Shown: positions 14,732 to 39,660 of the stretch, in pieces | Layout: the number at the start of each line of letters is the position of its first letter | Position numbering within the stretch: position 1 is the stretch's first letter | Assembly: GCA_963777955.1 (NCBI GenBank) | Contig: CAVZSQ010000019.1 | Coordinates: 192,001-256,000 of the forward strand | Reading direction: 5' to 3' | Length of the DNA stretch: 64,000 nucleotides | DNA from: Calditrichia bacterium | Lineage (GTDB): Bacteria > Calditrichota > Calditrichia > JAJRVZ01 | Notes under the pieces: model-generated | Seen by the model: only the letters and a program-made list of their open reading frames with translations | What the model was told of the DNA's origin: nothing | Databases searched by the model: none | Translations under genes and position numbers: made by a program

Positions 14732-15325
14732 TCATTTGTGATGGCGCTTTTTCAAAACATTGACGACCTGAGCTATGGTAACTTTCTTACAAGTCATTAA
14801 AACCAGCAGGTGATAAAGCAGATCGGCAATTTCATTTTCCAGCCGATCCCTTTTTTTATCGAGGGCAGCGATGATCACCTCGGTCGCTTCCTCCCCCACC
14901 TTCTGGACAATCCGGTTCAGTCCTGCGCTGAATAAACGTGATGTATACGAGGTTTTTTGTGGATTGATTTTTCTGTCGGCGATAATTTTTTCCAGTTCAT
15001 CCAAAAAATTGCCGTTTGAATTTTTTTCATTGAAACAGGTATCAGAGCCTTTATGACAAACCGGACCCGCCGGATCGACTTTAATCAACAAGGTATCACT
15101 ATCACAGTCCGTTAAGATTTTCTTACAGGTCAGGTAATTTCCGGAGACTTCACCTTTAGTCCACAGGCGCTTTTTGCTGCGTGAATAAAAGGTGACCTGT
15201 CCTTTCTCCCTGGTTTTTTTTAATGCCGCCTCATCCATATAAGCCAGCATTAAAACCCTGCCTGTCTGTTCATCCTGGATTATGGCCGGAATCAAACCAT
15301 TGCCTTTCTTAAAATCTAATTTCAT
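14732..15325 (-). CDS. hisIE: Bifunctional phosphoribosyl-AMP cyclohydrolase / phosphoribosyl-ATP pyrophosphatase
   Basis: [39 protein letters not shown]. Confidence 0.96.
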
Positions 15326-16079
15326 AAACGCACCGCCACCTGATTATTTATTAAATATTTTTTGAGTTCGGGAATCGATATCTCGCCGAAATGGAACACA
15401 CTGGCCGCCAGGGCTGCATCGGCCTTGCCGGTGGTCAACACTTCCAGGAAATGCCGATTCATACCGGCGCCGCCGGAGGCTATAACCGGTACCGGCTTAC
15501 CCGTTCCGAGATCATCCGGGTTAAATCCAGAGCATAACCGTCCTTGGTGCCGTCATGATTCATGGAAGTCAGCAATATCTCTCCGGCACCACGCTGAACC
15601 ACCTCATCAGCCCAATCCAGTGTAAGCCGTTCGGTAGGGGTCCTGCCGCCATTGACATAGACCGACCATCGGCCATCCACATTTTTGGTATCAATGGCCA
15701 CCACGATACACTGACTGCCAAATCTGCCGGCCAGCCGGTCGATTAAATCCGGTTTTTTAACCGCGGCCGTATTGATGGTAATTTTATCGGCTCCCGCCTG
15801 CAGCAGCCGGGTGACATCATCTTCGGTATGAATTCCTCCGCCGACGGTAAATGGTATATTAAGATTCCGGGCAATACGCTTCACCAGATCCTGAAAGATA
15901 CGGCGCTGTTCGACCGTGGCGGTTATATCCAGAAAAACCAGTTCATCGGCCCCCTGCTCCGCATATACCTGGCCCAGTTCTACCGGATCACCGGCCTGGC
16001 GCAGGTTGACAAAGTTAATCCCTTTGACGGTTTGACCGTCTTTCACATCCAGACAGGGGATGATCCTCTTAGTCAGCAT
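15322..16079 (-). CDS. hisF: Imidazole glycerol phosphate synthase subunit HisF (frameshift near 15495)
   Basis: [22 protein letters not shown]; continues in another frame as [10 protein letters not shown]...[11 protein letters not shown]...VRL*, with ATGA overlap to hisIE. Confidence 0.93.
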
Positions 16080-16794
16080 ACAATTCTTTCAACTCCCGAA
16101 AATTTATATATCCTTCATAAAAGGCCTTACCAATTATTACTCCATCCACATCCAGGCTATTTAAAGTCTGAACATCTTTGATCGTGGTTACTCCGCCGCT
16201 GGCAATCAAAAAAAGGTCCGGAAATGTTCCCTTTACCAGGCGATACATATCAACTGCAGGCCCCTGTAATAAACCGTCTTTTTCAATATCTGTACAGATA
16301 ACGGTTTTAATTCCTGCCTGCCGGAATTCTGTTAAAAAGTCCAGCAGATCGATCCTGGTGTTCTCCGACCAGGCGCCGATCTTCACGAAACTTTTATAGA
16401 AATCGGCGGCCAGGATGATTTTATCGCTGCCATATTTTACAAGCCATTCGCAAAATAATGCTCGGCAGGTGACCGCGATACTACCGATTGCAACCTGGGC
16501 AGCACCACAGCGGAATACCAGATCCAGATCGGCCTGTGAACGAATGCCGCCGCTGAAATCGATTAGCAGTCCGGTATGTGCCGCAATTTTTTCCAGCACC
16601 AGATGATTAACCACTTTTCCTTGCCTGGCACCGTCAAGGTCGACCAGATGCAGGCGTTTACAGCCGTGCTGTTCAAATTCTATGGCCACAGCGAGCGGAT
16701 CAACATCATACTGTTTTACTGCATCAAAACGACCCTGGCGCAGGCGGACGCACCTGCCGCCAATCAAATCGATAGCCGGGATGATCGTGATCAT
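16069..16794 (-). CDS. hisA: ProFAR isomerase HisA
   Basis: [32 protein letters not shown]. Confidence 0.95.
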
Positions 16795-17381
16795 AGCTCC
16801 AAAAAATTTTTAAGAATTAACTCTCCGACTTTTCCGCTTTTTTCCGGATGAAATTGCAGCGCATAAAAATTATCCTGTTGTAAGGCCGCACTGAACGGGA
16901 CGATGTAATCGGTGATCGCCGCGGCAGCCGCGGTAGCCGCGTCCGCCTGGGCATAATAACTATGGACAAAATAAACATAACTGTTTTCCCCTACCCCAGC
17001 AAAGAGAGGACCTTTTAAAGTACAGATAGTATTCCAGCCCATATGGGGTACTTTATGCCCAGCTGGAAATTTCATGACATTTGCCGGAAAAATTCCCAGA
17101 CCGCTGGTTGCATTTTCCTCGCTGTAGCGGCACAGCAACTGCAGGCCCAGACAGATGCCCAGCACCGGCTGCTGTAAATGAATGATGACCCGGTCAAGTT
17201 TACGGGCCATGAGGTAACTCATGGCCGAACTCGCTTCACCCACCCCCGGAAAAATTACTTTATCAGCCTGCTGTATCAGTAGCGGATCGTCGCTGATCAG
17301 CGGTATCACACCCAGTCGTTCCAGGGCCAGTTGCACGGAATAAATATTCCCGGCATTATACTTTATAATAACGACTTTCAC
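16791..17381 (-). CDS. hisH: Imidazole glycerol phosphate synthase glutaminase subunit HisH
   Basis: FPGVG, GICLG.Q, VPHMGWN, YFVHSY, QFHPEKSG. Confidence 0.96.
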   Translation of the reverse strand: MKVVIIKYNAGNIYSVQLALERLGVIPLISDDPLLIQQADKVIFPGVGEASSAMSYLMARKLDRVIIHLQQPVLGICLGLQLLCRYSEENATSGLGIFPANVMKFPAGHKVPHMGWNTICTLKGPLFAGVGENSYVYFVHSYYAQADAATAAAAAITDYIVPFSAALQQDNFYALQFHPEKSGKVGELILKNFLEL

Positions 17382-18469
17382 AGTAATCCTTTGGTACTGG
17401 GCAATAATTTACCCTGTGCATCCCGCTGCACGGCCATGCGCAAAGCCCGCGCCGTTGCTTTGAAGATCGCCTCGATTTTATGGTGTTCGTTCTCCCCCTC
17501 AGCCCGGATATGCAAATTGCAGCCGGCCTGATCGCTGAATGATTTAAAAAAGTGATAAAACATTTCAGTGGGTACATCGCCGATCTTTTCCCGCTTGAAT
17601 TTCACTTTCCAGACCAATACGGATCTGCCACCCAAATCCACAGCAACCCGGGCCAGCGCTTCATCCATCGGCAAGACAAAACCGTAGCGCTGCATGCCCT
17701 GTTTATCTTTTAAAGCCTGCTGCAGAGCCATTCCCAGTACAATAGCGGTATCTTCGACCGTATGATGTTCATCTGTGTCCAGATCCCCTTTGATGTTCAT
17801 CTCCAGATCAAAGCCGGAATGACGGCTGAACAACTCCAGCATATGTTTTAAAAATCCTAACCGGCAGCGTATGCGGTACTTTCCATTGCCATCCAGATTT
17901 AACCGGACGGTTATGTCGGTTTCAGTGCTTTTTCTGTTCACCACGGCCTGGCGTGGTCTTCCGGTCAGAAACTCATATATTTTAGACCAATCGCTAGTCG
18001 TCAGAGCCGCATCTTTATTTTTTTTGTTATTAATAAATATGGCCTGGCAACCCAGATTCTTAGCCAGTTGGATATCGGTCAACCGATCGCCGATTACGTA
18101 GGAATGGGCTAAATCATGCTTCCCTTTCATATATTTTTTCAGCATCCCCGTCCCCGGTTTGCGGGTTGGAGCCTGGTCGGCCGGAAAGGTACGGTCGAGC
18201 AGTACCTGCGAAAAATGAATATTCTCATCGGCCAGCACCTGCAGCATAAAATTATGCACCGGCCAGAATTTTTTTTCCGGCAGGAAATGCGTGCCCAATC
18301 CATCCTGGTTGCTTACCAGCACCAGTTCATAATCTGTTTCGGCAGCAATTTTACGCAATGCGGAAATAACTCCCGGCAAAAACCGCATCTTGGCAAAGGA
18401 ATCCACCTGTTCATCCGGCGTCTCAAATAAAATAGTGCCATCACGGTCAATAAATAAAACTTTTTTCAT
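17378..18469 (-). CDS. hisB: Bifunctional histidinol-phosphatase / IGP dehydratase
   Basis: HAD motif FIDRDGT plus DEHHTVED, PMDEA and NEHHKIE. Confidence 0.96.
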   Translation of the reverse strand: MKKVLFIDRDGTILFETPDEQVDSFAKMRFLPGVISALRKIAAETDYELVLVSNQDGLGTHFLPEKKFWPVHNFMLQVLADENIHFSQVLLDRTFPADQAPTRKPGTGMLKKYMKGKHDLAHSYVIGDRLTDIQLAKNLGCQAIFINNKKNKDAALTTSDWSKIYEFLTGRPRQAVVNRKSTETDITVRLNLDGNGKYRIRCRLGFLKHMLELFSRHSGFDLEMNIKGDLDTDEHHTVEDTAIVLGMALQQALKDKQGMQRYGFVLPMDEALARVAVDLGGRSVLVWKVKFKREKIGDVPTEMFYHFFKSFSDQAGCNLHIRAEGENEHHKIEAIFKATARALRMAVQRDAQGKLLPSTKGLL

Positions 18470-19517
18470 CGGAGATCTCCTTGAGAGCTGCTATTAATAT
18501 TTTGTTTTCAGTCTGCCGTGCCCACCGTAATACGCAGACAGTTTTGACAGCCCGGTATGTTAGAACGATCCCGGATGATAATATTCCTTTTGAGCAGGTT
18601 CTGATAGACCAGTCCGGCATCCCTGACTTTAATTAACAGAAAATTGGCGTCGGAAGGATAAACTTTTTCTACTACAGGCAGCCCGGCCAACTTCTGCTCC
18701 AGGTAGCGACGCTGGGCCAGGATGCGGGTAACCAGTTTATCCTTGCGGTGCATCCTGCCGAAGGCCTTTAAAACCGTTTGCTGGGTTAAACCGCTTACAT
18801 TGTAAGGATACTTGACATTATTCATGACTTCGATTATCCGGGGATCAGCATAAGCCATGCCCAGGCGGATATTGGCCAAACCCCAGGCCTTGGAAAACGT
18901 CTGCAGTATCACCAGATTCGGATATTTTTTCAGCCAGGACAAAAATGTTTTTTGCGGACAGAAATCTATATAAGCTTCATCTATAACCACCATGGCTTTA
19001 ACTGTTTTCAGTATCCGTTCCACGTCGCCGGGCTGCATCACATTGGCCGTCGGATTGTTGGGTGAGCAGATAAAAAGTAATTTATGCCGGGAATCCACTT
19101 GCTGTATAATTTGTGCGGTATCCAGCCGGAAAACGGGCGTCAGGGGTACTTCGCTGACAGCGATATCATTAACCCCGGCAAAAAAAGTATAGACGCCGTA
19201 GGTCGGTGGAAAGATCATCAGCGCATCCTGGCCCGGTTCGCAAAAAAGGCGGATCAGTACATCGACAGCCTCGTCACTGCCGTTGCCGATAAAAATTTGG
19301 TCTTCGTGCAAACCCTTGATCCTGCCCAGTTTTGCCTTGATTTCCTTTTGCAGCGGATCGGGATAGCGGTTTAGTTTTTTGCCGGTCACCGATCCCAGTG
19401 AATTTTCATTGGCATCCAGAAAAATACCGCGGCGGCGTTTCCGCTGTATTCCAGCCGGGCCGAAGAATATGGCTGTACTTTTTTTATATTCGGCCTGATC
19501 AGATCGGTTATCTTCAT
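18447..19517 (-). CDS. hisC: Histidinol-phosphate aminotransferase (frameshifts near 19435 and 18510)
   Basis: MKITDLIRPNIKKVQPYSSAR from ATG 19517 (ATGA overlap with hisD); LDANEN, GNGSDE, CSPNNPT, DEAY, TFSKAWGLA..RLG; C-terminal ENKILIAALKEI in a shifted frame. Confidence 0.92.
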
Positions 19518-20822
19518 CGGCGCTTTCTACCTTGTTTATCCAGACGCACCCGGACCGAATTGCCATGTCCGGACAGATTTTCAGCTTCAGCCAGGGTTTG
19601 GATGGAGGGTCCTAACCACCGCAAACCCCTACGGCTGAGTTGTTGAAAAGTAATCATTTTCAGGAAACTTTCCACATTAATTCCGCTTTGATGGCGGGCA
19701 TAACCGCCGGTGGGCAGCGTATGATTTGTGCCCGAAGCATAATCTCCCGCTGCTTCAGGCGAGTCAGGTCCGATAAAAACACTGCCCGCATTTTTAATAG
19801 CCGGTAGTATCCGGGCCGGATCTCTTAAATTCAGGATCAGATGCTCGGGGGCATATAAATTAATATACTGCACGGCGCGGTTGAGATCGGCGATGAAGAT
19901 CAGTTTACCATGCTGCAAGGATTGCCGGGCAATATCTTTTCTGGGCAAGATCTGTAATTGGCCACGAAGTGCCTTTTGCACTTTGCTCAGCAAGGCTACC
20001 TGCGTTGTGACCAGAATAACCTGGCTGTCGGTGCCATGTTCAGCCTGGGCTAGCAGATCTGCGGCAACGAATTCCGGATCAGCAGTTCCGTCGGCTAAAA
20101 CCAGCACCTCCGATGGCCCGGCCGGCATATCGATTCCCACTCCATCCAATTGCACCAGTTGTTTGGCCAGAGTGACATATTGATTGCCGGGTCCGAATAT
20201 TTTATAAACAGCCGGAACGCTTTCGCTGCCATATGCCATGGCTGCCACTGCCTGGGCACCGCCAAGTTTGTAAATATGTTTCAAACCCAGATAATGACAG
20301 GCATAAAGAATAAGCGGATTCACTGCACCCTGCCGGTCAGGGGGGGAGCAGACGATTATTTCCCTGCATCCGGCCAGCAGTGCCGGGATGCCCAGCATCA
20401 GTACCGTAGAAAATAAAGGCGCCCGGCCGCCGGGAATATATAAACCCACCTTCTCAATTGGCAATAGTTTACGCCAGCACACCACACCAGGGACCGTCTC
20501 AATCTTGCGCAGCCGGCTGCCGCCGCCGAAGGTCTGCCCGGCATGAAATTTCCTGATGTTCGCCGCAGCAATCGTCATAGCTTTTTTCAACTCAGGCTGT
20601 ACCTCTGCGACCGCCGCAGTTATTTCCTGCCTGCTCACTTTCAAACCGGCGAGTCTGGCCTGATCAAAACGAAGTGTTAATTTTCGCAAAGCCGGGTCGC
20701 CCTGCTCTCTGACCATTTTAAGTATTGAGTCTCACCTGACCAAGCATTTTACCGCGGTTGAGTACCGGACGCTTAATCAGCAATGGCCATTCTGTTTTTG
20801 AAGGATTTCGGATAATTTTCAT
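19514..20822 (-). CDS. hisD: Histidinol dehydrogenase (+1 frameshift near 20730)
   Basis: MKIIRNPSKTEW...RP N-terminus; GLYIPGG, GPGNQYV, DMPAGPSE, AQAEH, APEHL, GDYASGTNHTLPT. Confidence 0.94.
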
Positions 20823-20839
20823 TTTAATATTTTCCCGGT

Positions 20840-21694
20840 TTATACAATCATCTTTTCAATAGGTATGACCAGAATGCCCTCGGCACCGGCCTTCTTCAGA
20901 TTTTCAATATTTTCCCAGAAGTCATCTTCATGTATAACCGAATGCATCGAACTCCAGCCGCTCAGGGCCAGCGGCATCACCGTCGGGCTCTTCATTCCCG
21001 GCAGCATTTGCGAGATTGTTTTCAGTTTTTCATTAGGAGCATTCAATAAAATATATTTATATTTTTTCGCTTTATTAACTGCCCGGATACGAAAAAGTAA
21101 TTTATCCAGAATACTTTTCTTATCAGGATTTAACCCGGGATGTTGTACCAGAACTGCTTCCGAGTGCAGCACAACCTCCACTTCCTTCAATCCGTTACTC
21201 AGTAAGGTACTGCCTGTATTGACAATATCCATAATTGCATCGGCCAGCCCGATTCCGGGAGCAATCTCCACCGAACCGTTAATTTCATGAATGGTCACAT
21301 CAACTTTGCTGGCTGTCATAAAATTGCCCAGGATATTAGGATAGGAAGTGGCAATTTTCAAACCCTGCAAATCCTTGATGGAACTGTATTCCATTGATTT
21401 GGGAACAGCGATGGCCAGGCGGCAGCGGGCAAAACCGAGTTTTTCAGAGATAACCAATCCCCGTCCCTTTTCATGAAAGATATTTTCACCTACAATTCCC
21501 GCATCAGCGATCCGGTCAGCGACACATTCCGGAATATCATCATCGCGCAGGTATAAGATCTGGACCGGAAAGTTTTTAGCCTCGGCTTTTAATTTCGACT
21601 TGCCGCCGTTATCGAATTCAATACCGGTCTCTTCCAGCAACCTGACTGTTTTCTCGCTTAATCTGCCTGTCTTTTGGATCGCCAGTGTCAACAT
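20840..21694 (-). CDS. hisG: ATP phosphoribosyltransferase (long form)
   Basis: LAIQKTGRL, RDDDIP, IATSYP, GSVEIAP..GLADAI.D, C-terminal PGMKSPT regulatory domain. Confidence 0.96.
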   Translation of the reverse strand: MLTLAIQKTGRLSEKTVRLLEETGIEFDNGGKSKLKAEAKNFPVQILYLRDDDIPECVADRIADAGIVGENIFHEKGRGLVISEKLGFARCRLAIAVPKSMEYSSIKDLQGLKIATSYPNILGNFMTASKVDVTIHEINGSVEIAPGIGLADAIMDIVNTGSTLLSNGLKEVEVVLHSEAVLVQHPGLNPDKKSILDKLLFRIRAVNKAKKYKYILLNAPNEKLKTISQMLPGMKSPTVMPLALSGWSSMHSVIHEDDFWENIENLKKAGAEGILVIPIEKMIV

Positions 21695-25170: not shown

Positions 25171-25185
25171 AATGAGGTGATTAAA

Positions 25186-26755
25186 ATGAAAATATTAATC
25201 ATCGGCCTGATCCCCCTGTTACTCTTCGGTTGTCTCAAATATTCTTATCAACAAAAGATGAACTATACTGCGTTCGGTCGACAGATCGCCGAGACCGACA
25301 CGCTATCTTTCATTACTAAAAATGGGGACCAGTACTCATTACAGGTAGTGTCGGTATCTGCGCATGAAATACAGGGTCAGGGCAGGATGAAAAACCAATC
25401 TCATTCCTGGCAGGATTTTTCCGGAACCGTAGATCTGGACAGCATTGACATTCTGCTATATCAGAAAACAGCGGCCGCGCCACTTTTTGTTATTGCTGCC
25501 GGTGCAATAATAGTAGGAGAGATTTATCATTCCAGTTTATCCGGACCGGACGAACCAGCCTTGGAGATATCCTATCCCATGGGATCATCGTGTCCTTATA
25601 TTTATAGCAAAACCGATACAGGTTATTGCCTGGAAGCCGAAGCTTTCGGTACGGCGCTGGGCAGGGCCCTGGAAATAGAAACCAGCAGTTGTCTACCGGC
25701 GCTGAGTTTCAATGAGCCTGACCTGCAGATACGCATCAGCAATGAACGCTTAGAAACCCAGTATATCAATTCGGTATCACTGGCAGTGGTAACTCATCCA
25801 GCTGACGCTGTCGTGGTATTAGACAATGCCCAGATCTCCCTGGCTGGTATCACACTCCCAAAAACCGTTGCTGGCCATCGACCATTCCGGAAAGAATGTA
25901 ACCGCCCTGATTGATTCTGAAGACAGCAGATATTGGGAATCGGATCTGGCCAATATCACCTTTAATTCCTCACTTCAGGACGGCCTGGAATTGCGTTTCG
26001 CCCGGCCGGAAAACAGTGGCAACGCAGCTCTGCTAATTGATGCGATCAATACCGAACTGATCACCAGCGTCTATCAAAGTGTATTTAGTTTTCTGGGTGA
26101 CGACGCTTTATTATTTTTACATAAATTGGAAACCGACAGCAATATAATTGCTCTGATGCATAAATGGTTGCAGGATTGTGCACTGCACGTCTCTGTCTGG
26201 AATAACGGCCAATGGGAACCAGCTGGTTCCATTTTCCCCGAGGCCAATGCGGTACCCTTTCAACGCCTGGTTTACCTGCAGATTCCCGAATCAAGTTCTG
26301 CCGATAAAATTGTTCGTATCAGGTTGCATTCGTTGCCGGATGTGTGGAAAATAAACTCAATTACTCTGGATTGGATGCCGGAGCGGGCACGGGATATTCA
26401 AACCGTGCCCCTGCACCAGGCGGATGGACCAGGCGGCTTAAGCGGAAAAGAAATTTTATCACGGCAAGACCAGGATTATGCGGTACTTTTACCCGGGGAT
26501 AAAATTGATTTGTGGTTCGAAAATAAGGGGCTTATAAAAAGTCCGGCGGTCACAGCGGTGCTCGCAGTAAGCGGTTATCTGCATGAATGGTTGCGGCAGG
26601 ATGATACTATTAATACTTTTTCCCTGGGCGCCGCAGGTATTTGGGGGAACGATCGTTTAGCTGCTTTGACCTATTTAATGAACGAAAAGCGACTATTATT
26701 ACCGCCCATCTATTCCGATTGGAAAAATCACAAACTGCAAAAAAGTGTACGATAG
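25186..26755 (+). CDS. Hypothetical lipoprotein (+1 frameshift near 25830)
   Basis: Lipobox LLFGC; overlapping ORFs 25177-25914 and 25826-26755; SCPYIY...E..YIN...L..V.HP segment and C-terminal GYLHEW. Confidence 0.65.
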
Positions 26756-27130: not shown

Positions 27131-28948
27131 ATGGATATCAAAAAAGTAACGGGAATTATTTTTACCGATAGTACTAACGGCTACGCTCCTGCTTATGACC
27201 TTTCCACACTTGTCAGTTATGCCCGGCAACTTGACGGAGTCAAGCTGGTCTGGAACACCACTGACTTGCCGATGTCCAATGTTCAGCAGATGGCCGAAAA
27301 AATCAAGGAACATGGATTAAATTACCTGATTCTGGCCGGTGATCTTCCGGGTCTGCAAAAAACCTTCTTTGCCAGCGCGATGATAACCGCAGGCCAGGAT
27401 CCGCTGCAGATCTTCCTGGCCAGTTTTCTTGAATACGGTGTCGTTTCCCCTGCTGAGACTGAACGGGCCAAAGCAATCCTCTATTGTGCAGTCAGAGGTC
27501 TGCGTTTTGAACAGGCAGCTCTACCCAAAGAAACACCTGTTCATCCCGACACTCTGGTTATCGGTGCAGGCATTGCCGGAATTCAGGCTGCTCTGGAGAT
27601 AGCCAATGGCGGGCAAAAAGTATATCTGCTGGAAAAAACCGGAACAATCGGCGGACATATGGCCATGTTCGATAAAACCTTCCCTACCCTGGATTGTGCA
27701 GCCTGTATCCTGACACCCAAGATGGTGGAGGTAGGTCAGCATCCCCTGATCGATCTTTTGACCTATTCCGAGGTGCAAAAAGTGAGCGGCCGGCCCGGCG
27801 AATATAAGGTGAAAATATTAAAAAAAGCCCGGCGGGTAAATATAGCCACCTGCATTGGTTGCGGTACCTGCACGGAAAAATGTCCGGCTACCGCCCCGAG
27901 CGAATTCGATGCCGCTACCAGTCTGCGCAAAGCTATCTATATCCCCTTTCCGCAGGCCGTACCCAATAAATACCTGATCGACGAAAAAAGTTGTATTTAC
28001 CTGGACCGCGGTAAATGCGGAGTCTGCGTAAAAGTATGCCCGGTACCCGATTGTATCAATCTGGACGAAAAGGACGAAGAGGTCGAGTTAACCGTCGGCA
28101 ACATTATCGTGGCCACCGGATTTCAAATATTCGATGCCCACCGTGCAGAACAATTCGGTTACGGCAAATTCCCTAATGTCATCACCTCGCTGGAGCTGGA
28201 ACGTCTGGTCAATGCCGCCGGTCCGACCGGAGGCGTTATTCACTTTCGTTCCAAAGACAAACGGGATAACTGGATTTTCTCCCCGGAAAACGATCAACCG
28301 CAAAGCATCGCCCTGATCCATTGCATCGGCAGCCGTGATGAAAACTTTCATAAATATTGCTCCAAGGTTTGCTGCATGTACTCGCTCAAGCTGGCCCACC
28401 TGATCCGTGAAAAACTTCCGACGGCAGAGATCAGCGAATTTTTTATTGACATGCGTGCCTTTGGCAAAGGTTATGAAGAATTTTATGAACGCATCAAGGA
28501 AGAGGGTATAAATATTATCCGCGGTCGCACAGCCAAAGTTGAACAATCCAATGGCCAACTGTTATTGCGCACTGAAGATATCCTGCACAATCGCCTGCTG
28601 GAAACAAAGGTGGATATGGTTGTGCTGGCGGTGGGCTTGGAACCTCGTGAAGATGCACAGAAGATAAGCGACCTGTTAGGTATTCCCTGCAGCGCAGAAG
28701 GCTGGTTCCGGGAAGCAAACATAATCAGCGATCCGGTAAACACTTTTAGCGGGGGCATCTCCATAGCCGGAGTATGCCAGGGTCCCAAAGATATTCCCGA
28801 TACAGTGGCCCAGGCTTCCGCTGCCGCATCACGGGTGCTGCAAAGTATCATCAATGGAAACGTCAAAGAAAGTATCAAGGATTTAACTTTACAGAATGTC
28901 GAAACTCAGGCTAATCAAATTTCAACCAGAGTGGAGAACCAATCATGA
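27131..28948 (+). CDS. hdrA: HdrA-like flavoprotein 1 (FAD, inserted 2x[4Fe-4S] domain, Cys-less N-terminal domain, no C-terminal ferredoxin domain)
   Basis: VIGAGIAG, DKTFPTLDCAACIL, CIGCGTCTEKCP, CIYLDRGKCGVCVKVCP, CIGSRD..YCSKVCCMYSLK, GPKDIPD. Confidence 0.92.
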   Translation: MDIKKVTGIIFTDSTNGYAPAYDLSTLVSYARQLDGVKLVWNTTDLPMSNVQQMAEKIKEHGLNYLILAGDLPGLQKTFFASAMITAGQDPLQIFLASFLEYGVVSPAETERAKAILYCAVRGLRFEQAALPKETPVHPDTLVIGAGIAGIQAALEIANGGQKVYLLEKTGTIGGHMAMFDKTFPTLDCAACILTPKMVEVGQHPLIDLLTYSEVQKVSGRPGEYKVKILKKARRVNIATCIGCGTCTEKCPATAPSEFDAATSLRKAIYIPFPQAVPNKYLIDEKSCIYLDRGKCGVCVKVCPVPDCINLDEKDEEVELTVGNIIVATGFQIFDAHRAEQFGYGKFPNVITSLELERLVNAAGPTGGVIHFRSKDKRDNWIFSPENDQPQSIALIHCIGSRDENFHKYCSKVCCMYSLKLAHLIREKLPTAEISEFFIDMRAFGKGYEEFYERIKEEGINIIRGRTAKVEQSNGQLLLRTEDILHNRLLETKVDMVVLAVGLEPREDAQKISDLLGIPCSAEGWFREANIISDPVNTFSGGISIAGVCQGPKDIPDTVAQASAAASRVLQSIINGNVKESIKDLTLQNVETQANQISTRVENQS

Positions 28949-30075
28949 ATATCCGCGTTAATCCCGATTTTCCTGCAGAATTAAAAAAGTACGGCAAGGG
29001 CGAATGGAATGACTGTTTCCATTGCGGTAATTGTACCGCTATTTGTCCCCTGACCGAAAATAATAATCTTTTTCCCAGACGAAGCATCCGCCTGCTGCAG
29101 ATGGGTTTAAGCGACCAACTGGCCTTAAATGTTGACCCCTGGTTGTGTTATTATTGCGGGGACTGCTCAAAAACATGCCCCCGTAATGCCAATCCGGGCG
29201 AGTTGATGATGAGTTTAAGGCGGTATTTGACTTCCATCTATGACTGGACCGGCCTTTCCAAAAGGTTTTATACCACCAAATTCTGGGAATTTGGTATGAT
29301 TATCTTTCTGTCTCTGTTGGTAATCAGCCTTTTTGCCTTCGCGCTGCCGCCTCTGGATCCGACACTGACCCCGCAGGGGGGTGTAAAAATAAATCAATTC
29401 GCTCCGGTGGAATGGATTGAGATCGGCGATTGGACAATGGCCGTCATTGTCGCTGCCCTGCTGATCTCAAATATTCTGCATATGTACTATAAAGTGATAC
29501 TATCGGATAAATCTATCAAGATACCGTTCCTGTACTACTTTAAAGAATTCTGGCTGCTGATCGTTCATTTCCTGACTCAGTTGCGTTTTTCCAAATGCGA
29601 TGCCGAAGGTAAAAGATACTGGTTTGGTCACTGGCTGCTCATGTCCGGTTACACGATCATGTTCACTGTAATCGTTGTCTTCTTACCATGGTTTCAGACT
29701 GAAGAGATACATCCGCTGTATCATCCCCAGCGCTTCCTGGGTTATTATGCAACATTCGGATTGTTATTTGGATTGGTATTCGCCTTGATTGGCCGCATAA
29801 AGAAAACCAGCGAAAAATTCAAATTTTCTCACTTCAGTGACTGGTTTTTCATCATCATGCTGATCATGACCACGGTTACCGGTATTATGGTGCATATCTT
29901 CAGGGTCAACGGCATGCCGGCGGCCACTTATTATACCTATATTGCTCATCTGGCGATTCTGGTGCCGATGATCATGATCGAAGTACCATTTTCTAAATGG
30001 TCGCACCTGGCTTACCGTCCTTTTGCGGTTTATTTTTCCAATTTAAAAAATACAGCCCTGGCACAACAAAAATAA
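28945..30075 (+). CDS. QmoC-like subunit: HdrC-like 2x[4Fe-4S] domain fused to an HdrE/NarI-like membrane cytochrome b domain
   Basis: CFHCGNCTAICP, PWLCYYCGDCSKTCPR; about 6 TM helices with His in GHWL, VHIF, AHLA and PFSKWSHLAYRP. Confidence 0.85.
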   Translation: MNIRVNPDFPAELKKYGKGEWNDCFHCGNCTAICPLTENNNLFPRRSIRLLQMGLSDQLALNVDPWLCYYCGDCSKTCPRNANPGELMMSLRRYLTSIYDWTGLSKRFYTTKFWEFGMIIFLSLLVISLFAFALPPLDPTLTPQGGVKINQFAPVEWIEIGDWTMAVIVAALLISNILHMYYKVILSDKSIKIPFLYYFKEFWLLIVHFLTQLRFSKCDAEGKRYWFGHWLLMSGYTIMFTVIVVFLPWFQTEEIHPLYHPQRFLGYYATFGLLFGLVFALIGRIKKTSEKFKFSHFSDWFFIIMLIMTTVTGIMVHIFRVNGMPAATYYTYIAHLAILVPMIMIEVPFSKWSHLAYRPFAVYFSNLKNTALAQQK

Positions 30076-31831
30076 ATGAATGAGGATAAAATGGAAGAAC
30101 CTAGAATAGGGGTTTATGTCTGCTGGTGCGGTTCGAATATTGCTAAAATGGTCGATGTGCAGGACGTGGCAAAATTCATCGCTAAACTGCCCGGTGTCAT
30201 AATCGCCCGTGATTATAAATACATGTGTTCGGATCCCGGTCAGGATATGGTTATTAAAGATATTAAAGAATTTAAACTGAACCGGGTGGTGGTTTCCGCC
30301 TGTTCTCCGCGAATTCATGAAATCACTTTCCGTAAAGCCCTGGAGAACGCCGGTTTAAATCCCTATATGTTCGAGATGGCCAATATCCGCGAACAGGACT
30401 CCTGGGTGCATGAAAACCGGGTGGAAGCGACACATAAAGCCAAGTCGCTGGTAGCTCGCCGCCGTTTACCGGGTCAAACATCACGAAGCGCTGGACAAGC
30501 GGACGGTGGATATCAATCCGGCCACATTGATCATCGGTGGCGGTATCGCCGGTATCTCGGCAGCTCTGGAGATTGCCAATGCCGGCAAAAAGGTTTTTCT
30601 GATCGAAAAGACAGGTGAACTGGGTGGAAATTTAACCCGCGTCGATCTTACCTTCCCCTATCTGTACAGTGCTCAGCAAATACTGAATCCGATCATCGCA
30701 CAGGTAAAAAAACATCCCAATATTTCTATTTTTCTGAACAGCACTATTGATGAAGTGTACGGATATGTGGGAAATTTCGAGACAACTTTGAAAAATCAAA
30801 ATGGCCAGGATCTGCTATTAAAATTCGGAAATGTCATCGTGGCGACCGGCCTGAAACCATTTGATCCGGCCGTGATCCCCGAATATAATTACGGCAAACT
30901 GCCGGATATCATTACCTCTTACGAATTCGAGCGTATGCTGCTAAGCGGGCAGATCCTTAGCAAAGCAGGAAAGATCCCTAAAAATATTGCCATCATCCAT
31001 TGCGTGGGCAGCCGGAATCCCAAATATCATCCGTACTGTTCCCGCACCTGTTGTTTGACTGCGCTCAAGTATTCCAACCAGATCCGCTCAGCCCTGCCGG
31101 ATGCGAATATCTATCAATTGTATGCTGACATGCGGTCTATGGGCAAAGGCTGCGAGGAATTATATACCCGTACTTCCAGGCAGGGGGTTATGTTCCTGAT
31201 GTTTGATCAGAAACGCAATTTGCCGCGAGTGCGCAAAGCGGATACGCACGATAACTGCAGTATGGTAATCGAAATGAATGAATTATTGTCTGGTGAAACT
31301 GTGGAGGTCCCTGCGGATCTGGTCATCCTGATGGTCAACATGGAAGCGCATGATGATTCAGCGGACGTGGCCCATGCGGTCGGTGTGAGTAAATGCGGCA
31401 ATGATTTCTATATTGAGAAACATCCCAAACTGGATCCGGTGGCCACTACCACCGATGGTGTATATATCGCCGGCAACTGTCAGAGCCCCAAGCACATTCC
31501 TGATTCCATTGCGCAGGCTAAAGCGGCTGCAGCCCGCATCCTGGCCACTATCAAGGTTGCCTCGGTTAATGTAGAAGTGACCACCGCCCAGGTGAATGAA
31601 GATATTTGCTGCGGCTGCCAGACCTGCATAAAAGTCTGCCCGTATACAGCGATCAGTTACCTGGCGGACAAGAAAGTTTCTTTTGTTAATGATATCCTGT
31701 GTAAAGGGTGCGGAACATGCGGATCGGCCTGTCCGACCGGTGCCATTCGCAGCAGGCATTTCACCGATCAACAGATCATGTCCGAAATCGAAGGTATCCT
31801 GCAATTTGAAATGGAGGAGGCTGTACCATGA
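30076..31831 (+). CDS. hdrA: HdrA-like flavoprotein 2 (N-terminal Fe-S domain, FAD, C-terminal 2x[4Fe-4S], no inserted ferredoxin; +1 frameshift near 30457)
   Basis: [65 protein letters not shown] and [12 protein letters not shown]. Confidence 0.9.
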
Positions 31832-32253
31832 GTTTTCGACCCACGATCATATCCTTTCTGTGCAACTGGTGTTCCTATACGGGTGCGGATCTGGCCGGAA
31901 CTTCGCGTATGAAATATTCTTCAAATATCCGGGTGATCCGGGTAATGTGTTCAGGCCGTATTGACCCTACTTTTGTTTTGAAAGCCCTGCGCGAAGGAGC
32001 GGACGGTGTTTTAATCTGCGGATGTCATCCCGGTGATTGTCATTATCATGAGGGTAATTATAAATGCCTGCGCCGCTTCCACCTGTTACAAAAATATCTC
32101 GAACAGATGGGAATCAATAAAGAGCGTATACGCCTGGAATGGGTCAGCGCCTCCGAAGGGAAACGATTCGCTGAAGTTGTAAACAGCATGACCGAGACCA
32201 TAAAAAAACTGGGTCCGTGCGAAGTTCGTCAAACCATGGAAAAACTAAATTAG
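31828..32253 (+). CDS. mvhD: MvhD [2Fe-2S] subunit
   Basis: [39 protein letters not shown]. Confidence 0.96.
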
Positions 32254-32267
32254 CAGGGAGAACAAGG

Positions 32268-33248
32268 ATGGCCGAGGTTCAGCAAAAACCAAAAATAAAA
32301 ATGGCCGTTTACTGGGGTGCAGCATGCGGTGGTTGTTGTGTATCGGTACTCGATGTCCATGAAAAATTATTTGACGTGGTGGCCGCTGCCGATCTGGTAT
32401 TCTGGCCGATTGCCCTGGATATTAAATACAAAGACGTTGAAGCGATGCCGGATGGTCATATCGATGTCACCCTGTTCAATGGTGCTGTGCGTAATAGCGA
32501 GAACGAGCATATGGCCAAACTGCTGCGCCAAAAGACAAAAGTACTGGTAGCCTACGGTTCCTGTGCGCATATGGGCGGGATTCCCGGTCTGGCCAATTTC
32601 AGTACTAAGGAAGAAATTTTTAAAAGGGTTTATCTGGAGAGCGAATCCACCATTAATCCCGATAAAATTATGCCCCAAACTAAATTCCAGGTAAAAGAAG
32701 GCGAACTTGAATTGCCGGTTTTTTATAACGATGTACGGGCCTTGAACCAGGCGGTTGATGTGGATTATTACCTGCCCGGTTGCCCACCGCAAACGGAACG
32801 ATTACTGGAAGTATTTATGGCCATCGTCAGCGGTGCCACTCTTCCGCCTAAAGGATCGGTGGTCGGTGCCAACGAAAAGGCGCTCTGTGACGAATGTGAA
32901 CGCACCAAGAGCGATGCTAAAACAATTAAAAGATTTTACCGGCCTTATGAAATTGTCGATGACGGTAAAACCTGTTTTCTGGAGCAAGGGGTTATTTGTA
33001 TGGGTCTGGCCACCCGCGGTGGTTGCGGATCACGCTGTATCAAGGGTAATGCCCCCTGCCGCGGTTGTTATGGGCCACCGATCACGGCACCCGATGCCGG
33101 CACCAAAATGATGTCTTCACTGGCGACCATGATCGATTCCAACGATGCGGATGAGATACAGAAAATTGTCGGGCAAATCGCCGATCCGGCCGGGACTTTT
33201 TACCGGACCAGCCTGCCCACTTCGATTATCAGGAGGAAACTAGCATGA
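32268..33248 (+). CDS. mvhG: [NiFe]-hydrogenase small subunit MvhG
   Basis: ACGGC, GSCA..GGIPGLAN, PGCPP, CDEC, CFLEQG.ICMG..T..GC...C...N.PCRGC; no Tat signal. Confidence 0.93.
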   Translation: MAEVQQKPKIKMAVYWGAACGGCCVSVLDVHEKLFDVVAAADLVFWPIALDIKYKDVEAMPDGHIDVTLFNGAVRNSENEHMAKLLRQKTKVLVAYGSCAHMGGIPGLANFSTKEEIFKRVYLESESTINPDKIMPQTKFQVKEGELELPVFYNDVRALNQAVDVDYYLPGCPPQTERLLEVFMAIVSGATLPPKGSVVGANEKALCDECERTKSDAKTIKRFYRPYEIVDDGKTCFLEQGVICMGLATRGGCGSRCIKGNAPCRGCYGPPITAPDAGTKMMSSLATMIDSNDADEIQKIVGQIADPAGTFYRTSLPTSIIRRKLA

Positions 33249-34706
33249 CGCGGATAACCATCGATCCGATTACCCGTCTGGAAGGACATGGCAAAATAGA
33301 AATTTTTCTGGATAATGCCGGTGATGTGGAAAATGTATACTTTCAGGTCCCCGAATTACGCGGCTTTGAAAAATTCTGCGAAGGCCGGCCAATCGAGGAA
33401 GTTTCAGCGATTGTCACCAAGATCTGCGGAGTGTGCCCGGGTTGTCATCACATGGCAGCCGGTAAAGCGGCCGATGCCGTTTTTGGTGTGGAGCCGACAC
33501 CGACGGCTAAGAAGATCAGGGAATTGTTTTACATGGCTCATTTCGTCCACAGCCACATTGCCCATTTTTATGCTCTGGCCGCCCCAGATTTTGTAGTCGG
33601 ACCCACTGCCCCTCCGGCCGAGCGCAATATTCTGGGAGTGATTGCTAAAGTCGGTGTGGAAATTGGCACGGAAGTGATCAAACAACGCCGTATTGCCCAG
33701 GAAATACAGGCACTACTGGGCGGCCACCAGACCCATGTTGTACTGAATATCCCGGGAGGTGTGCGGAAAGGTTTGACTGAAGAACAACGTCTTGATATAG
33801 TCAAGAAGGCCGAGGGCTTCGTCGAATTCGCCAAATTTTCGTTAAAAATCTTCAACGATGTGGTTCTGGCCAATAAACAGTACGTCGATATTATACTTAA
33901 CGGTCCCTATTCCTTAAAATTACATTCCATGGGTCTGGTGGACGAAAACAATAAAGTCAATTTTTATGATGGTAAAGTACGGGTTGTGGATACTACCGGT
34001 AAAGAACATTGCAAATATGCCCCCCGCGAATACCAGAAGTACGTGGCCGAACGGGTTGAACCATGGAGTTATCTGAAATTTCCATACCTCAGGCAGATCG
34101 GTTGGAAAGGATTTGTAGACGGCCAGGAATCCGGGATTTACCACGCCACACCTCTTTCGCGTTTGAATGCTGCCGATGGTATGGCCACCCCGCTGGCTCA
34201 GGCCGAATATGAAAGGATGTATGCAACTCTGGGCGGGAAACCGGTCCATGCCACGCTGGCTATGCACTGGGCCCGTTTGATTGAACTCCTCTATGCGGCG
34301 GAACATTGTTTAGAACTGGCCAAAGATAAATCCATCACTTCCACCGACTTGCGGGCCAAACTGGATAAAAAGCCCAGCGGAAGGGGTGGGCATCGTTGAA
34401 GCACAGCGCGGCACCCTGACTCACCATTACTGGACGGATGAAAAAGGTATCATTACCAAAGCCAATATCATAGTCGGCACAACCAATAACAATGCAGCCA
34501 TCTGTATGTCGTTGAAGAAAGCCGCACAGGGATTGATAAAAAAAGGCGTACCGGTGACCGAAGGTATGCTCAATATGGTGGAAATGGCTTTCCGGGCTTA
34601 TGATCCATGCTTTTCCTGTGCCACCCACAGTTTACCTGGAACAATGCCCATGATAGTAAACATACATGATTCAGCAGGGATTATAATTCAAACTTTAAAA
34701 CGATGA
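33245..34706 (+). CDS. mvhA: [NiFe]-hydrogenase large subunit MvhA, group 3c-like (+1 frameshift near 34380)
   Basis: IDPITRLEGH, RGFE, L1 KICGVCPGCH, EAQRGTL.HHY, L2 RAYDPCFSCATH plus cleavable C-terminal extension. Confidence 0.93.
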
Positions 34707-34732
34707 AGAATTCTATTTAAAGCAAGTAGTAT

Positions 34733-34759
34733 ACAGGGGCGGGTTTTTCTCGCCCCTGT
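34733..34759 (+). terminator. Stem-loop between mvhA and the maturation protease gene
   Basis: ACAGGGGCG-GGTTTTTCT-CGCCCCTGT followed by TTATTT. Confidence 0.6.
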
Positions 34760-34778
34760 TTATTTAAGGGCTGGTTAA

Positions 34779-35246
34779 TTGAAAAATACAACTTTAATTC
34801 TGGGCATTGGTAATGAGATCCTTAAGGATGACGGTATCGGCCCTAAAATCGTCAGCCGGCTGGCTGGTGAATTTCCAGCAAGTGACTTCGACTATCAGTC
34901 AGCCAGCCTGGGCGGATTGGAATTAGTTGAATTGATCCGGGGTTATCAAAGAGTAATCTTAATCGATGCAATTAATACAGGCCAGGGTCAGGTAGGGGAT
35001 GTATATTTCTTTACACCTCAGGATTTTAAGGAAACATTACATTTGTCAAATTTACACGATATCTCTTTCCTGCAGGCGCTGGAATTAGGCAGACATATAA
35101 ATATCCCAATCCCTGAAGAGATCCAGATTATCGCTATTGAAATAAGGGAAGATAAAGTCTTTGGTGAAGATTTCAGCCCTGAATTACAAAACCGCTATGA
35201 ACAGATCTATAAATCAATTAAAGATTACCTTAAAAAAATCGGGTGA
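34779..35246 (+). CDS. Hydrogenase maturation endopeptidase
   Basis: ILGIGNEILKDDGIG, ILIDAI and SNLHD motifs; follows mvhA. Confidence 0.93.
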   Translation: MKNTTLILGIGNEILKDDGIGPKIVSRLAGEFPASDFDYQSASLGGLELVELIRGYQRVILIDAINTGQGQVGDVYFFTPQDFKETLHLSNLHDISFLQALELGRHINIPIPEEIQIIAIEIREDKVFGEDFSPELQNRYEQIYKSIKDYLKKIG

Positions 35247-38816: not shown

Positions 38817-39660
38817 TCAATTTAATGCCAATCCCGTGTCAGTAATCTTTATTGTTCTGCCGGTACCCATATTAATAAATTCTTCACCATATGCGTCTCT
38901 GAACATTTGAATTTGCTTGTCACCCGTACAGTGTGTGGCACCGCATTTCCGTACTTCCAGTTTTCTAAATTCTTTTATTATTTCATGCACTGCTGCATCG
39001 GAATGTTCTAACAGATGAAATCCACCCAGGACCAAATATATATCTTTGTTTAAAAGTTTTTTTGCTGCCTTCAGTATATTCAATAATGCCCTGATGAGAA
39101 CAACCGGTGATGATCACCAGACCTTGTTTTGTATTGATGATCATTGATTGTTCTTTTATCTGTCCACCCATCTCTCCGCTCAGGAATACATTGCGGCAGA
39201 TCTCGACCGGTTTATCCACCCGTGTGATCTTTTTTATTCCAGTCTTTAAACCAAAATCTTCGGAAAAAGATACAGGTACAAATGCAGGAATATCCGGATT
39301 TCGTGAATATACTTCTGGAATCCCGCCGGTATGATCCTGGTGCTCATGCGACAGAATCAATTGCTCGACCTGTCGCAAATCAACATGTAAAATGTCAATG
39401 TTATTAACAAGTATACCACCAATTCTTCCGGTATCGAATAGTATGGTTTTTTCTAATCCTTCGATCAAACACGAAAAACCCCAGTCGGATTCGGTTTCAG
39501 GCTTATAAATATAATTATCGACCAGGATTGTGATCTTAAGCGTGTCGCCGACCATCGCAGGGACAGAGCGGGGTGTCTGCATTAGTTGTAATGAAAACCC
39601 GGTTGTGCTTAAAACATTGATCAATAAGGTCGCAAAGACAAACCGTTTCAACCAGGACAT
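38817..39660 (-). CDS. MBL-fold metallo-hydrolase (+1 frameshift near 39085)
   Basis: WGFSCLIE, LFDTG, SHEHQDHTGG, TGCSHQG, then GGFHL and THCTG in the next frame. Confidence 0.85.

Follow-up and report, generated by a model that had tools for sequence, protein, structure and literature searches.

A 64,000-nucleotide stretch of the genome of a Calditrichia bacterium (assembly GCA_963777955.1, contig CAVZSQ010000019.1, positions 192,001 to 256,000; hereafter the window, in whose coordinates all positions are given) encodes two paralogues of HdrA, a subunit of heterodisulfide reductase (Hdr), that have lost complementary sets of iron–sulfur domains. Both lie in a tight plus-strand operon with the order hdrA1–qmoC-like–hdrA2–mvhD–mvhG–mvhA–hydrogenase maturation protease (27131–35246), and neither gene encodes the complete four-domain HdrA of the methanogen homodimer type. 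The complementary domain loss is real and not a product of chance, because the same pattern holds in 75/75 HdrA1-type (A1) and 58/58 HdrA2-type (A2) proteins. By analogy with solved Hdr complexes, HdrA1 and HdrA2 very probably assemble as one asymmetric heterodimer. With moderate confidence, we further propose that the operon encodes a complex, built on this heterodimer, that bifurcates electrons from H2 to ferredoxin and membrane menaquinone.

Complementary domain loss in HdrA1 and HdrA2

HdrA1 (27131..28948, plus strand, 605 aa) was assigned from its sequence, a profile search, a structure alignment, and conservation across 75 sequences. It aligns to the solved HdrA 5ODC over residues 30–579 (E = 2.8e-139) and ends 26 residues past that match, with the C-terminal ferredoxin absent. 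Its N-terminal domain is a cysteine-less remnant (0 Cys at the four N-terminal cluster positions), while the flavin adenine dinucleotide (FAD)/thioredoxin-reductase domain, the ligands of cluster HA4, the equivalents of Glu356, Arg357, and Lys409, and an inserted 2x[4Fe-4S] ferredoxin domain (27833..28063, plus strand), the predicted low-potential exit, are all present. Within the motif FPTLDCAAC, Cys189 and Cys192 (Cys189-Ala-Ala-Cys192 codons at 27695..27706, plus strand, placed from the sequence and the 5ODC alignment) correspond to Cys194 and Cys197 of 5ODC, counted on that alignment, and to Cys202 and Cys205 of M. marburgensis HdrA. An AlphaFold model of HdrA1 (model confidence score pLDDT 82.4) has 5ODC_A as its top fold match (E = 5.5e-59).

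HdrA2 (30076..31831, plus strand, ~580 aa in orthologues) is the mirror image. It retains the CWCG/MCSDPG/ACSP motifs of the N-terminal four-Cys cluster domain and the two clusters of a C-terminal 2x[4Fe-4S] ferredoxin; its FAD domain has the HA4 ligands and reads FPYLYSAQQ, so the Cys pair is missing, and its alignment to 8RVU skips the inserted ferredoxin, jumping from residue 243 to residue 319. An earlier note on this DNA, made from the sequence alone, had described HdrA1 (no N-terminal cluster Cys, FPTLDC and inserted ferredoxin kept, no C-terminal ferredoxin) and a mirror-image HdrA2 in these terms, and all of its quoted motifs were found. It correctly recognized two hdrA paralogues in this region but left the QmoC-like gene between them (28945–30075) unnamed, and it treated hdrA2, whose domains are as it described, as a single open reading frame (ORF) where this copy is split over two frames.

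These differences are strictly conserved. A scan of genome contigs with A1 as query confirmed 508 relatives, of which the best 80 loci were analysed. Loci without a complete A1 (6/80) or a complete A2 (22/80), cut by the contig or locus end, were dropped before residues were counted, leaving 75 A1 sequences, that of the window among them, and 58 A2 sequences, all complete; these orthologues are related and were collected via A1, and the counts are not independent events. All four N-terminal cluster Cys are present in 58/58 A2, and a CxCGxN or MCS motif occurs in 0/75 A1. The Cys194/Cys197-equivalent pair is found in 75/75 A1 versus 0/58 A2, as is the inserted ferredoxin (75/75 versus 0/58, where the A2 alignment has a gap), and the C-terminal ferredoxin shows the reverse distribution (0/75 versus 58/58). 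The complementary pattern supposed by the earlier note is thus a strict and nonrandom property of the orthologous clusters. Every A1 and every A2 also keeps the four HA4 ligands and the equivalents of Glu356 and Lys409, so the central cluster and most of the "E.ER" and "CC....K" residues are common to both, as the note had held; its Arg is not a shared feature, since Arg357 occurs in 75/75 A1, whereas at least 49/58 A2 orthologues have K, Q, E, or D there.

A2 proteins carry marks of their own. The motif HPKL is present in 58/58 A2 versus 0/75 A1, and the Tyr of GKGY is replaced by Cys in 54/58 A2. A contact between the HPKL loop of HdrA and HdrC found no support in the literature searched and is not assumed here. 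This GKGC cysteine and a C-G-N motif before HPKL (both within 30506–31831) have no counterpart in HdrA1 or full-length HdrA, and an extra metal site or disulfide is possible. MvhD is equally constrained, with the equivalents of Cys15, His67, and Asp70, residues linked to transfer toward the bifurcating flavin in the available text of PMC13580544, kept in 57/57 copies.

Gene order is conserved with the residues. The order A1-QmoC-A2-MvhD-MvhG-MvhA is complete in 53/80 loci, collinear up to a contig or locus end in 26/80, and different in 1/80. Carriers belong to Bacteroidota, Ignavibacteria, Aminicenantes, Acidobacteriota, and Thermoleophilia and include one deltaproteobacterial metagenome-assembled genome (MAG); most are anaerobic Bacteroidales MAGs. 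Among 301 genomes sampled from the order of a Draconibacterium genome (centre genome included), 18 have an A1-type gene, full-length in 17 (57–67% identity) and fragmented in one. A protein of the QmoC-like type is also encoded by Draconibacterium aestuarii. Four of the 18 A1-bearing genomes have a second, paralogous operon copy with the order mvhD-mvhG-mvhA-hdrA1-qmoC-hdrA2 (4/4), so the six genes stay together despite rearrangement; the gene preceding the permuted operon in three of the four copies is, we assume, response-regulator-like. Upstream of hdrA1, the largest ORF at 69 loci belongs to one divergent family in 19, a second in 9, and a third in 4, which we take to be HypF-like, CRP/FNR-like, and HypB-like, respectively.

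A search of 60 relatives of the host genome with HdrA1 as query yielded no close A1; its best match (51% identity) was to a full-length HdrA, so the operon is patchy within the host's own group. Some of these relatives (loci L006–L014) have an HdrA of ~820–840 aa whose Cys197 position is occupied by a TGA codon in frame, which likely encodes selenocysteine.

The copy in the window carries two frame breaks. In hdrA2, the N-terminal domain occupies 30076/30091–30456 and the remainder 30455–31831 in another frame, and mvhA is broken near 34377. Together with the missing close relative of hdrA1, the breaks near 30457 and 34377 could be read as a pseudogene cluster in decay, a reading that we consider improbable. 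Four public runs contain contigs from close relatives with one base fewer at 30457 (three contigs, two runs) and, in the same comparison, one base fewer at 34377 (again three contigs, two runs), all catalytic motifs are intact, and both frames are whole in orthologues. Elsewhere in the window, overlapping or truncated ORFs resembling one-base frame breaks occur at 14732–21694 (presumably a histidine operon) and in what we take to be two other broken genes at 25177–26755 and 38817–39660, which suggests that the assembly is indel-prone. Because the relatives' contigs lack exactly one base, orthologues are whole, and other genes of the assembly are similarly broken, assembly error is the likelier cause, although the compared runs are not of the source strain and hence give no proof. 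No RNA run was listed among the public sequencing runs that carry the region.

A predicted hydrogenase–HdrA–quinone complex

The remaining genes of the operon suggest what the HdrA pair is connected to. MvhD, a [2Fe-2S] adaptor (31828..32253, plus strand; Pfam FlpD, E = 3.4e-58), is followed on the same strand by mvhG for the hydrogenase small subunit (32268..33248, start taken from the sequence; VhuG model, E = 1.6e-65, below cut-off) and mvhA for the [NiFe] hydrogenase large subunit (33245..34706; VhuA model, E = 1.7e-97, below cut-off), which has ~487 aa in orthologues and carries the motifs KICGVC and DPCFSCATH. A hydrogenase maturation protease (34779..35246, plus strand; TIGR00072, 100.6 bits, cut-off 47.45) closes the operon. 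The MvhA, MvhG, and MvhD genes thus adjoin HdrA genes as in methanogen MvhAGD-HdrABC. The conserved operon order holds no hdrB and no soluble hdrC, the host's CCG-domain matches sitting elsewhere in the genome, nor does it include a gene for ferredoxin or polyferredoxin.

Between the two hdrA genes lies the QmoC-like gene (28945..30075, plus strand, 376 aa). Its product combines an HdrC-like 2x[4Fe-4S] domain with about six membrane helices (by hydropathy), as in QmoC, and misses the family cut-off (NCBIfam qmoC, 205.8 bits versus 300). No variation is seen, in 69/69 orthologues or in 6/6 true QmoC, at the eight cluster Cys, Cys218, His229, His335, or His354. The fourth His of true QmoC (6/6), by contrast, is replaced by Gln in 64/69 QmoC-like orthologues (Gln212 here), and Met180 is invariant in the QmoC-like orthologues only. 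A model of the protein (pLDDT 87.2) is nearest in fold to EtfD (Z 10.6, root-mean-square deviation [rmsd] 4.4, 218 aligned), followed by NarI (Z 9.8, rmsd 5.5, 173 aligned) and HdrC (Z 9.5, rmsd 2.3, 99 aligned), and is consistent with a quinone-linked cytochrome b.

Solved Hdr complexes offer a template for how these parts may fit together. In the available text of two structural reports, the arm of one protomer, with its MvhD, serves FAD', HA4', and HA5' of the other (PMC12350162, PMC13580544), in agreement with the cross-protomer mechanism given in the earlier note. The Cys202'/205' pair, situated between MvhD and FAD', is the proposed mediator of that step (PMC13580544), and according to Chadwick et al. 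2022 (PMC9012536), Cys197 reaches across the protomers to ligate the N-terminal cluster. HA3 is assigned to the C-terminal region in one Hdr structure legend; whichever arm domain holds it, HdrA2 has both. With all primed elements on A1 and all arm elements on A2, one A1/A2 dimer would have exactly one complete bifurcation path. The earlier assignment of A2 as input arm and A1 as bifurcating flavin and ferredoxin exit fits both this mechanism and the complementary loss; what it omits is the QmoC-like subunit and Mvh.

In the complex that we propose, H2 would be oxidised at MvhA and electrons would pass via MvhG to the [2Fe-2S] cluster of MvhD, which would ride on HdrA2's mobile arm, made up of the N-terminal cluster domain and the C-terminal ferredoxin, and deliver to the FAD of HdrA1, assisted by the Cys189/Cys192 pair found in HdrA1 only. 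The high-potential electron would run from HA4 through the HdrC-like clusters and the b-type haem(s) of the QmoC-like subunit to menaquinone, which would replace the heterodisulfide, and the low-potential electron from a shuttle cluster on the HdrA2 arm through the inserted ferredoxin domain of HdrA1 to ferredoxin. The flavin site of HdrA2 would be structural or a relay and not a second bifurcation site. In the net reaction, 2 H2 would reduce menaquinone and ferredoxin with two electrons each.

Alternatively, the paralogues might act separately, as homodimers, or resemble a second Qmo and use a partner from another locus, for example HdrBC or AprAB, as acceptor of the high-potential electron. 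The host has a hdrC-hdrB-hdrA-mvhD cluster on another contig (C26, 31862–38515), and 18/51 operon genomes tested (host included, one control excluded) have an aprA match. However, the C26 cluster has its own HdrA, an A1 homodimer would have no arm, and an A2 homodimer would have neither the Cys pair nor the exit domain. In the host genome, which is 92% complete, neither aprA nor dsrA gave a match, and aprA is likewise without a match in 33/51 operon genomes, host among them. At all five aprA loci inspected in operon carriers, aprA stands in its own aprBA-qmoABC cluster (5/5), so the present operon is a second system distinct from qmoABC. AprAB as an obligate partner is accordingly rejected, and we regard the separate-paralogue or other-partner alternative as very improbable. 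Two observations stand beside these results. On C26, hdrB and hdrA are seemingly fused by a frame break, and three further genes follow mvhD, presumably Flox/Asr-like. Five Bacteroidota genomes (loci L156–L160) have a full aprA-qmoABC cluster, with aprB seen in two, and dsrA gave no match in the three of them tested.

The heterodimer could also be a plain wire from H2 to quinone, with the inserted ferredoxin of HdrA1 serving only docking or structure. The conserved order without a ferredoxin or polyferredoxin gene would suit such a wire, and bifurcation by QmoABC is, according to the available text of PMC3333476, not demonstrated. Yet the sequence signature of a bifurcating HdrA (Glu356, Lys409, HA4 ligands) is present: 75/75 HdrA1 keep the inserted clusters and the Cys pair along with Glu356, Arg357, and Lys409, and 58/58 HdrA2 keep the arm clusters. 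Such equipment would be superfluous in a plain wire, and we therefore hold this alternative to be quite unlikely.

The direction of electron flow is a separate question, and we propose less firmly than the heterodimer itself that the complex works physiologically by oxidising H2 and bifurcating to menaquinone. With assumed potentials of −414 mV for H2, −75 mV for menaquinone, and −450 to −500 mV for ferredoxin, the calculated reaction energy is −49 to −59 kJ per 2 H2, and the calculated equilibrium lies at about 8e-6 to 5e-5 bar H2. The same heterodimeric complex could therefore run in reverse and form H2 by confurcation of reduced ferredoxin and menaquinol, giving fermenting or syntrophic cells a sink for electrons. 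The carriers are mostly anaerobic Bacteroidales MAGs, a group known for fermentation. Confurcation is also the favoured proposal for QmoABC in the available text of PMC3333476. On the other hand, the forward reaction is favoured by ~50 kJ at higher H2, and HdrA-bound Mvh-type hydrogenases oxidise H2 in the solved systems; reverse operation thus appears unlikely, if less so than a plain wire.

Several points weigh against forward bifurcation at a single flavin in a quinone-linked complex. Direction cannot be read from sequence, and near the calculated equilibrium it could be either. The HdrA2 flavin may also be active, because its Glu356 and Lys409 equivalents (58/58) and glycine motif (57/58) are kept. 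One of the four QmoC His is replaced, so the haem content of the QmoC-like subunit may differ from that of QmoC; its fold scores (Z 9.5–10.6) are modest for helical bundles, and Foldseek returned 0 matches at E ≤ 0.001 for its model. The host genome has a futalosine-pathway menaquinone gene (PF02621), but only 2/5 operon genomes tested have a match in a search covering the futalosine pathway alone, and a UbiA-family search matched all controls too and hence says nothing specific about menaquinone. The host does encode hdrC and hdrB elsewhere (C26), this copy has its two frame breaks, and the ortholog counts come from related loci. In the searched literature, mostly open-access, no biochemistry of the complex and no report of the operon in bacteria was found.

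Relation to Qmo and other Hdr systems

Among known systems, QmoABC of sulfate reducers and green sulfur bacteria also combines two unequal HdrA-like flavoproteins with QmoC (PMC3333476, available text). We compared A1 and A2 with true QmoA and QmoB, taken from loci with a QmoC above the NF038018 cut-off or beside aprA, and found the same complementary split. QmoA resembles A1 in keeping the Cys197 position and the inserted ferredoxin and in lacking the C-terminal ferredoxin, though it is without any N-terminal domain. QmoB resembles A2 plus MvhD, having the N-terminal domain, no Cys197, no inserted ferredoxin, a C-terminal ferredoxin, and a fused MvhD. In contrast, MvhD is separate here, a hydrogenase is co-encoded, AprAB is not, and the QmoC-like protein falls below cut-off with one His fewer. 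The operon works like Qmo in design yet is not Qmo.

Phylogeny separates the two. In an unrooted tree of the FAD domain (65 rows, 332 columns), QmoA and QmoB are sisters (100/100), and A1 and A2 form separate clades (each 100/99) near full-length bacterial HdrA. Approximately unbiased (AU) tests on a 34-row subset under LG+G4, a simple model, with groups named after the first tree was seen, rejected both A1+QmoA (p = 2.6e-5) and A2+QmoB (p = 2.1e-6). Orthology with, or descent from, QmoA and QmoB is therefore rejected, and because these pairings fail, the HdrA split probably arose more than once, convergently with QmoAB.

Further arrangements turned up beside these. At five loci (L120, L122, L123, L150, and L155), HdrA pairs of another set, likewise accompanied by QmoC-like genes, show this complementary loss too, with no Mvh hydrogenase adjoining in the stretch examined; their A2-like members group with A2 at 83/95 only, and the A1-like protein of L120 and L122 has a large insert that we take to resemble an NAD(P)-binding flavoprotein. 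At four more (L151–L154), a QmoC-like gene is followed by a 300-aa N-terminal HdrA half, with the C-terminal half several kb downstream and further genes between.

The closest described gene content is the "Mvh-Qmo-Hdr" cluster of Candidatus (Ca.) Methanoglobus nevadensis and Ca. M. hypatiae (bioRxiv 10.1101/2022.12.01.518715, 10.1101/2023.09.08.556235). Both systems have MvhAGD, two HdrA, a QmoC/HdrC fusion, no HdrB, and no AprAB, and electron transfer from H2 to menaquinone plus ferredoxin was proposed there as well, likewise as a proposal only. The likeness is one of gene content and proposed reaction alone: the available text of those reports does not describe a complementary domain split, and it calls the cluster unique to methanogenic Archaeoglobi, whereas the present operon is bacterial and widespread. 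Heterodimers have been proposed for tandem or fused HdrA, namely ANME HdrA 5/6, 12/13, 3, and 4 and Moorella MetFV-HdrABC-MvhD (Chadwick et al. 2022, PMC9012536, available text). In those pairs the N-terminal cluster domain and Cys197 are on different copies and the C-terminal ferredoxin is complementary, the same arrangement that we find in 75/75 A1 and 58/58 A2. Methanogen MvhAGD-HdrABC (5ODC, 8RVU, 9SW2) shares Mvh input, the HdrA fold and cofactor ligands, and an arm serving the partner flavin (PMC12350162, PMC13580544, available text), but it is a symmetric homodimer with two equal flavin sites and an HdrBC sink, while the present system is asymmetric, lacks HdrB, and has a predicted membrane sink.

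Implications for Hdr-type bifurcation

The asymmetric HdrA heterodimer rests on a real pattern but is less new than the earlier note implied: the same argument was made in Chadwick et al. 2022, and the same split is seen in QmoA/QmoB. The heterodimer reading is thus well supported, if inferred, and already in print, and the larger system is of a known, uncharacterised kind. What is new is the residue-level complementarity in bacteria, the prediction of a single active flavin tied to the cysteine pair, and the evidence for convergence with QmoAB. Taken whole, the operon may represent a widespread bacterial H2:ferredoxin/menaquinone bifurcating hydrogenase in which only one flavin is active and the HdrA halves divided their tasks independently of QmoA/QmoB; we advance this combined reading tentatively, at a little short of an even chance.

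Assignments are hard to make in symmetric HdrA dimers, where both flavins and both arms are identical. The asymmetric pair puts the arm and the flavin on different genes, and single mutations can reveal the bifurcating flavin and the role of the Cys pair, a matter described as a critical gap in a 2026 structure paper (PMC13580544, available text). If our reading is true, the operon would amount to a naturally occurring Hdr with one site, and the step from MvhD through Cys194/Cys197 to the flavin would be directly testable in it, probably in cultured Draconibacterium, as would the bifurcation long proposed for Qmo-type complexes. The tree result suggests that HdrA symmetry has been broken in the same way more than once. 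Labels such as heterodisulfide reductase or Qmo on these genes would be misleading, and many Bacteroidota of sediments and wetlands would need neither a methanogenic nor a sulfate-reducing pathway to obtain reduced quinone and low-potential ferredoxin from H2.

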